DNA of 64,000 nt from NCBI GenBank assembly GCA_017433415.1, contig JAFRHI010000027.1, positions 20,615 through 84,614 of the forward strand, read 5' to 3'. The stretch comes from Bacilli bacterium (lineage in GTDB: Bacteria > Bacillota_I > Bacilli_A > RF39 > UBA660). The position numbers and the translations under genes were made by a program. Under the pieces are notes generated by a model that was not told the origin of the DNA, did not search any database, and saw only the letters and a program-made list of their open reading frames with translations. This document shows, piece by piece, positions 25,213 through 27,631 of the stretch; position 1 is the first letter of the stretch; each line of letters opens with the position of its first letter.

Positions 25213-25332
25213 ATGAATAAACAATTAAATATTAATTTATATTTTGATGATAAAGGTGAAGATATTAAAGAAGTGTTAGCTCGTGATTTTAAAGAGTTTT
25301 TGAATAGCTATATTAAAAAAGTTTTAAAGTAG
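25213..25332 (+). CDS. small ORF (39 aa) upstream of the recombinase, not in the supplied track
   Basis: ATG at 25213 preceded by aaaggag; MNKQLNINLYFDDKGEDIKEVLARDFKEFLNSYIKKVLK; stop TAG 25330-25332. Confidence 0.35.
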   Translation: MNKQLNINLYFDDKGEDIKEVLARDFKEFLNSYIKKVLK

Positions 25333-27114: not shown

Positions 27115-27128
27115 TATAGATGATTGCC

Positions 27129-27151
27129 ATGGTGATAATTTTTTTATCACC
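27129..27151. repeat. perfect palindrome TGGTGATAA-TTTTT-TTATCACCA overlapping repeat copy 1
   Basis: Read directly; 15 nt after the recombinase stop. Candidate recombinase binding or att half-sites. Confidence 0.6.
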
Positions 27152-27160
27152 AACGGTAAT
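27139..27160 (+). repeat. 22-nt direct repeat, copy 1 (ttttttatcaccaacggtaatc)
   Basis: Identical to 27199-27220; start-to-start spacing is 60 nt. Confidence 0.9.
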
Positions 27161-27187
27161 CGGTAATGTGCTTACTATTAGTGATAA

Positions 27188-27631
27188 ATAGTAATATATT
27201 TTTTATCACCAACGGTAATCACTCATGATTTTAATGGGACTAAAACTGATAATCAAATAAATATTAATGGTAGTTATGATGTTAATATTTGGTATTCTTA
27301 TGATAATGATACAAAAACAGATGTTGTTAGAGAAACTAATACTTATAATGAAGTAATAAAAATGCATAATCGAGAAGATGTAAGTGGAGAGGAAGTTATT
27401 GTTAGAAGTTTGAGACAACCTAATTGTATAAAAGTAGATATAGATGGTAATAGAATTAATTATGTAGTCGAAAAGGAATTGGGTATAGAATTAGTTGGTG
27501 ATATAAAAGTAAAGATTGAAGCTAATATGGATGAGGATCCATGGGATGAAATTGTTGAAGAAGAAACAGAAAAAAATATAGAAGAAGGCGTTAATTCTGT
27601 TGATGAAAATTTTATTTCTGAGACGTTATAA
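27188..27631 (+). pseudogene. cotE: cotE 3' portion (outer spore coat protein E), split by the ICE; ~35 N-terminal codons missing
   Basis: The translation ...SPTVITHDFNGTKTDNQININGSYDVNIWYSYDNDTKTDVVRETNTYNEVIKM...EVIVRSLRQPNCIKVDIDGNRINYVVEKELGIELVGDIKVKIEAN...acidic tail...ENFI matches B. subtilis CotE from recall. In-frame stop at 27185-27187; no start or SD. Confidence 0.8.
27199..27220 (+). repeat. 22-nt direct repeat, copy 2; lies at the ICE/cotE junction (candidate attR core)
   Basis: In the cotE frame it encodes F-L-S-P-T-V-I, colinear with CotE residues ~35-41. Confidence 0.9.

Follow-up and report, generated by a model that had tools for sequence, protein, structure and literature searches.

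The two identical 22-nt sequences at the right end of the integrated element are probably the element-side arms of two successive attachment sites of its large serine recombinase: the second copy would be the P half of the true attR, whereas the first copy, together with an AA centre and the diverged arm at 27167-27189, would be a fossil attP lying in tandem inside the element. The repeat was analysed in the window, by which we mean the whole stretch of 64,000 nucleotides (contig C22:20615-84614 of a 1.2-Mb MAG, 27% G+C), and the features of its right-end region are collected in Table 1.

Exact matches to the 22-mer (TTTTTTATCACCAACGGTAATC) occurred twice in the window, both on the + strand, at 27140-27161 and 27199-27220, and none of 100 dinucleotide shuffles contained any match to it with three or fewer mismatches. 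A third copy was absent from the whole 1.2-Mb assembly. These searches confirmed the pair of identical copies that a preliminary description of this DNA had reported at the element right end; copy 2 had been placed correctly, whereas copy 1 had been started one base low, at 27139, and the spacing had been given as 60 nt instead of the measured 59 nt. It is highly improbable that the duplication is an artefact of the MAG assembly, since a 22-nt repeat 59 nt apart fits in a single short read, and independent assemblies from other samples (L074 and L072) show the two-site layout with variants of their own.

Table 1. Features at the right end of the element, in window coordinates.
Feature	Positions	Strand	Remarks
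39-aa ORF MNKQLNINLYFDDKGEDIKEVLARDFKEFLNSYIKKVLK	25213..25332	+	conserved; just upstream of the recombinase gene
Large serine recombinase gene, 546 aa	25474..27114	+	element right end; Pfam Resolvase, Recombinase, Zn_ribbon_recom
Older P'-like remnant GATTGCCATGGTGATAAT	27122..27139	+	resembles the P' relic GATTGCTATTGGTGATAAT of L080 and L078
Copy 1, putative P arm of the fossil attP-like site	27140..27164	+	22-mer 27140-27161, then GGT; exact match, colinear with working P arms
Centre AA of the fossil site	27165..27166	+	from symmetry alignment; CA in working sites, AA also in L074
Diverged P' arm TGTGCTTACTATTAGTGATAAAT of the fossil site	27167..27189	+	18/23 identical to the G063 attL P' arm
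Hairpin TTACTATT / AATAGTAA and T-run	27172..27204	+	paired part 27172-27194; the T-run is the first six bases of copy 2
Copy 2, putative P arm of the true attR	27199..27223	+	22-mer 27199-27220, then ACT; same arm joined to cotE in all relatives
Inferred crossover dinucleotide CA	27224..27225	+	first two bases of the CotE His codon; attP symmetry centre
B' arm and cotE 3' part to the stop codon	27226..27631	+	Pfam CotE positions 37-176

A split cotE gene with a recombinase at the junction

The architecture found in the window was a split cotE with a recombinase gene at the junction. The gene product matched PF00239, PF07508 and PF13408 (Pfam), the resolvase, recombinase and zinc-ribbon architecture of large serine recombinases. 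The C-terminal three quarters of CotE were encoded downstream (Pfam CotE positions 37-176, E 1.8e-30), with 85% amino-acid identity to the intact CotE of a congener from V-I-T-H onward, and the cotE frame was closed upstream by a TAA at 27185-27187. Relatives were drawn from a large protein collection and from the contigs of its members, and their recombinase homologues (82-91% identity) adjoined a 3' fragment of cotE, except in L071, where the protein designated P0014 was found at a non-cotE site. A close homologue was absent from the species representatives of the same genus, in which identity reached at most 42% over the full length and 43% over a partial match. A second large serine recombinase gene of the same genome (contig C16:25366-26898) was 34% identical to the one adjoining cotE.

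An equivalent of the 39-aa gene upstream of the recombinase was called in every related element, including the minimal ones of 3-5 kb with almost no other genes (the sequences were aligned by eye), and this ORF may be a candidate directionality factor or regulator of the element.

Neither the left end of the element nor the 5' part of cotE was found in the assembly, either by tblastn/blastn with the CotE N-terminus and upstream region of the closest congener or by searching for the pattern of the P' arm. Upstream of the window, the contig (C22:1-300, G000) starts inside the gene of a highly repetitive, acidic protein rich in Ser, Gln and Glu, and attL was not assembled because the contig begins within this repeat gene.

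The repeat is mostly element sequence

Intact cotE was carried by 18 of the 24 sampled congeners, and all 13 CotE sequences that were read out contained the motif ...ST-I/V-LGCW-V/I-INH-x-F.... The corresponding DNA of the congeners reads ...TGTTGGGTAATAAATCAT... (TTGGGGTGTTGGGTAATAAATCATAATTTTAATGG at the motif in the closest congener) and shares only GGTAAT with the 22-mer. Nucleotide homology between the window and intact cotE began at this GGTAAT, at position 27214, and only the last seven bases of the 22-mer, GGTAAT(C), resemble cotE. The left 15 nt of the 22-mer were identical across hosts with different cotE alleles, and the exact 22-mer was found once each in two other MAGs of uncultured Bacilli, between the end of the recombinase gene and the 3' part of cotE.

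The preliminary description had regarded the 22-mer as the cotE target sequence, with copy 2 continuous with the cotE reading frame. The continuity was borne out, as copy 2 runs in frame into the C-terminal part of CotE; the identity of the sequence was not, as F-L-S-P-T-V-I takes the place of I-L-G-C-W-V-I in the intact protein. Because the homology to cotE starts only at GGTAAT, F-L-S-P-T-V-I is, by this alignment, a chance open frame across element DNA. We give almost no credence to the reading in which the two copies are a cotE target duplicated at integration: the in-frame position of copy 2 would favour it, but the intact cotE of 13 congeners encodes ILGCWVINH with quite different DNA, and the left 15 nt belong to the element, being the same in hosts with different alleles. 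With 15 of the 22 bases being element DNA (the P arm of attP and attR), the premise of that reading falls, and there is no target duplication by a serine recombinase to explain.

The working attachment site and the predicted crossover

Left junctions were available from small elements with both ends on one contig (L061, L072 and L081), where they read B arm-CA-TCTCATTACCGTTGGTGATAAA, and from one of the two other MAGs with the 22-mer, where the junction read ...GGTTGTTGGGTAATTAAT-CA-TCTGATTACACTTGGTGATAAATT.... The preliminary description had proposed the left end as a check; there, the element side of the relatives' attL has TCTCATTACCGTTGGTGATAAA, the 22-mer in inverted complement, the form that a P' arm should take, rather than an unrelated crossover site. 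The attP rebuilt from the element halves of attL and attR (L061, L072, L081 and G063 were taken in) is TTTATCACCAACGGTAAT-CACT[CA]TCTC-ATTACCGTTGGTGATAAA, a near-perfect palindrome of about 50 bp centred on CA. Its arms match at 18-19 of 22 positions about the CA, giving an inverted repeat around a 2-bp centre, with one P-type and one B-type arm in each attL and attR. Symmetry of attP around the central dinucleotide is a general rule for large serine recombinases (PMC5595907). Because the reconstructed attP is a palindrome about CA, the 22-mer is assigned as the P arm, the element-side half-site, of the attP of this recombinase.

The attP symmetry and the junctions of the relatives lead us to predict that strands are exchanged at 27224-27225, the CA with which the His codon of W-V-I-N/T-H begins. 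An identical recombinase (P0014) was found in all of L062-L070, nine sampled cotE contexts whose downstream cotE sequences differ; these elements were invariant through ...GGTAATCACACA (...CACACA) and host-variable beyond it. The P0014 element end at the non-cotE site (L071) switched from element to host at the same base, right after ...GGTAATCACACA. When the flanks of L061, L072 and L081 were joined in silico at CA, full CotE ORFs of 179-186 aa with the consensus motif resulted, consistent with a conservative exchange that would restore cotE on excision. Only copy 2 had been expected to restore the gene, which agrees with all the relatives, where an arm of the copy-2 type is joined to cotE and flanks joined at CA restore CotE; by comparison with them, copy 2 would be the working junction arm in the window.

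The palindromic site lies in a coding frame, and for this reason both attL and attR carry peptide tails: in the cotE frame, the P arm encodes F-L-S-P-T-V-I-T, and the P' arm (in the attL of L059, L061, L072 and L081) adds L-I-T-V/L-G-D-K plus one residue to the truncated N-terminal fragment of CotE, followed by a stop. The genes flanking the nine cotE contexts of the P0014 elements (L062-L070) were mostly different, and the available sequences point to a recent horizontal spread of this element. The element end of L071 adjoins Lon/PDZ and mutS genes.

A second attP-like site inside the element

Aligned on the working attP sites, the segment 27140-27189 was colinear with no indel. It had the exact attP spacing and a perfect P arm; its P' arm agreed with working arms at 16-18/23 positions (5-7 mismatches). 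A score of 18/23 for the P' arm was reached by only 5 of the 2.4 million 23-mers of the genome (~2e-6 per position), two of which were complements of P arms and one the fossil P' arm itself. On this alignment, copy 1 supplies the P half of a complete attP-like site, which sits within the element at a distance of 59 bp from the crossover and would therefore travel with it. The order in the window, P-O-P' / 9 nt / P-O-B', fits a tandem layout in which only about 9 nt are left between the sites.

Copies 1 and 2 are identical at 22 of 22 positions, whereas the rest of the fossil has diverged (19/28). The core of the fossil is 42/46 identical between the window and L074, compared with 82.5% DNA identity for the recombinase gene. 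The identity of copy 1 and the conservation of the fossil core could reflect gene conversion between the repeats, or selection on a binding site.

Serine recombinases require the central dinucleotides of the two partner sites to match. The copy-1 site carries AA, against the CA of attR, attL and cotE, so that it lacks the matching centre of a functional attP; because centres must match, it should not recombine with CA sites. A working second attP with an AA centre, giving the element a second integration target, is very unlikely, even with its full attP geometry, both arms present and a case of secondary-site integration in the family (L071). The junction of L071 uses a CA site and not AA, a centre of the copy-1 type was joined to host DNA in none of the relatives, the P' arm differs from the working arms at 5-7 positions, and the spacing in L072 is off by one.

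Palindrome, older remnant and putative terminator

The perfect palindrome TGGTGATAA-TTTTT-TTATCACCA of the preliminary description exists, one base above the 27129-27151 given for it (27130-27152), and the GTGATAA arm had been correctly located at 27181-27187. The palindrome arises because a P'-like remnant (GATTGCCATGGTGATAAT) abuts copy 1 back to back: the two together form a palindrome at 27122-27161, with the perfect core at 27130-27152, and RNA folding paired 27122-27138 with 27144-27161. The earlier suggestion of an autoregulatory binding site for the recombinase found no support, as the perfect palindrome is unique to the window element, lies downstream of the gene and has its half-sites back to back, unlike the geometry of att sites.

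The TTACTATT / AATAGTAA hairpin forms by pairing of the fossil P' arm, in its inner half, with the bases after it. This hairpin was kept in nine lineages with a consensus fold of 7 pairs, one of which varies in a compensatory way, being AU in five of them and GC in the other four. A strict terminator scan, which demands three G-C pairs, found none. The hairpin and the T-run are probably an intrinsic terminator of the recombinase gene, and the persisting part of the fossil overlaps this putative terminator. A terminator hairpin alone, with no P' arm, was ruled out as the sole explanation of the spacer because chance can hardly account for the match to real P' arms at exactly the attP spacing; the P' arm reading and the terminator reading of the spacer hold simultaneously.

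The extra site in related elements

The spacer between recombinase and cotE was read in 13 lineages with recombinases 82-91% identical to that of the window, and the distal arm was the one joined to cotE in every lineage read. The two-site layout with an AA centre was present in this window and in L074, and L072 had a two-site layout short of one base. In L060, L078, L080 and L083 the extra site had a decayed P arm but kept its P' remnant, a vestige consisting of AATTGTG and the hairpin was left in the P0014 lineage, and L061, L079, L081 and L084 had no extra site. A metagenome scan for the two-copy pattern matched only an unrelated gene with Thr/Pro repeats.

The recombinase tree placed L081, which has a single arm, within the tandem lineages L074 and L072, and this nesting was strongly supported. 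In the P arm of L081, the left part is that of copy 1 of L074 and the right part that of copy 2, and L081 has a simple attL, which fits better with an origin of L081 by collapse through recombination between the two direct repeats. An origin of single-arm elements such as L081 from integration through copy 1 was rejected, as it would leave a spare attP in attL, whereas the attL of L081 is simple. Given the distribution of the extra site in relatives and the nesting of L081, the site is judged to be old, heritable with the element, dispensable and mostly decaying.

This decay bears on another reading, which we regard as unlikely: selection would maintain the copy-1 site for accessory or decoy use, binding a recombinase dimer 59 bp from attR with no exchange (AA) and in that way tuning excision or integration, or sequestering the enzyme. 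In favour of it, copy 1 reproduces the binding arm perfectly, and the AA centre and exact attP spacing are common to two lineages whose recombinase genes are only ~82% identical in DNA. Nevertheless, L060, L078, L080 and L083 have lost or scrambled the P arm of their extra site, and L061, L079, L081 and L084 have no such site, yet all eight occupy cotE and keep their recombinase genes intact. Moreover, no large serine recombinase is known to depend on accessory sites, which also counts against selection. It is likewise unlikely that P-AA-P' is a deliberately disarmed attP, acting as a decoy or brake that holds the recombinase beside attR and sets how readily the element leaves cotE; if it were, the disarmed attP might restrict excision, for example to the sporulating mother cell or to conjugation.

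The members of the family ranged in size from the ICE of the window, of >47 kb, to elements of 3.1-4.7 kb (L061, L072, L080 and L081). Apart from the recombinase and the 39-aa ORF, the small elements have no more than a few genes, which are small or encode cargo (AAA ATPase, MBOAT); each of these elements is inserted at the same CA in cotE. In one genome (G064; L056 and L058) an interrupted cotE was accompanied by an intact one of clearly different sequence, which probably reflects a mixed bin and not a subpopulation with the element excised.

Origin and fate of the probable fossil site

Two origins can be proposed for the fossil tandem attP. A short (59-nt) tandem duplication of attP could have occurred in the excised circle, or a second element could have been integrated in tandem and its body deleted; the 59-nt duplication would explain the layout equally well as the deleted second unit. 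Two of the options in the preliminary description, the scar of a tandem copy and an element-borne pseudo-att site, come close to these data, in that a complete P-AA-P' site lies inside the element beside the true attR and is common to relatives in varied states of decay; the cotE target premise attached to them does not stand.

The fossil site is probably dead, its AA centre and diverged P' arm blocking productive recombination with attL or cotE. Excised circles would read ...ATCACCAACGGTAATCACT-CA-TCTCATTACC... and empty sites ...TGGGTAATnAAT-CA-TGATTTTAATGG, while no junction would be expected at GGTAATCGGT-AA, the copy-1 site.

Comparison with known systems and significance

The working site resembles the att sites of phiC31, Bxb1, SprA of SPbeta and GirC of gin (PMC5595907) in having an attP of ~50 bp, an inverted repeat about a central dinucleotide, attL and attR with one element arm and one host arm each, a recombinase gene abutting the site, and a target inside a mother-cell sporulation gene (gerE in the case of gin, PMC5595907). 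It differs from them in its target, cotE, in being carried by a conjugative element with small relatives, and in the second attP-like site 59 bp inside attR. Sporulation-gene intervening elements such as skin, SPbeta, vfbin and gin rebuild the gene by excision timed in the mother cell; the element of the window is likened to them by its architecture alone. Within the library searched, no paper was found that names cotE as the target of an intervening element or ICE.

Tandem accretion and decayed CIMEs beside ICEs and IMEs have been described, for example for ICESt1/ICESt3 of Streptococcus thermophilus (reviewed in PMC5704250). As in those composites, an inner att site parts the working element from the remains of a second unit, and the whole is inherited together and resolvable through the repeated sites (PMC5704250); however, the classic cases use tyrosine integrases and their decayed unit keeps kilobases, whereas the "second unit" of the window amounts to ~9 nt between the P' and P arms. 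Composite SCC/SCCmec islands and pseudo-SCC, which depend on Ccr large serine recombinases, likewise show att copies in direct order at one chromosomal target. Their repeats, however, bound real cassettes and stay recombination-proficient, whereas the window has no cassette and the centre of its inner site is changed.

The feature would thus be a familiar kind of evolutionary scar rather than a new mechanism, its novelty being its occurrence in an undescribed family of cotE-splitting elements; the repeat would count as a new mechanism only if the disarmed site proves functional. Fossils of att sites can pass for target duplications, which matters for delimiting elements and for using a recombinase/att pair as a tool. 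For the widespread, previously undescribed cotE-splitting elements of uncultured gut Bacilli, the analysis fixes the att anatomy, namely the arms, the predicted CA crossover and which of the two repeats would be the working one.
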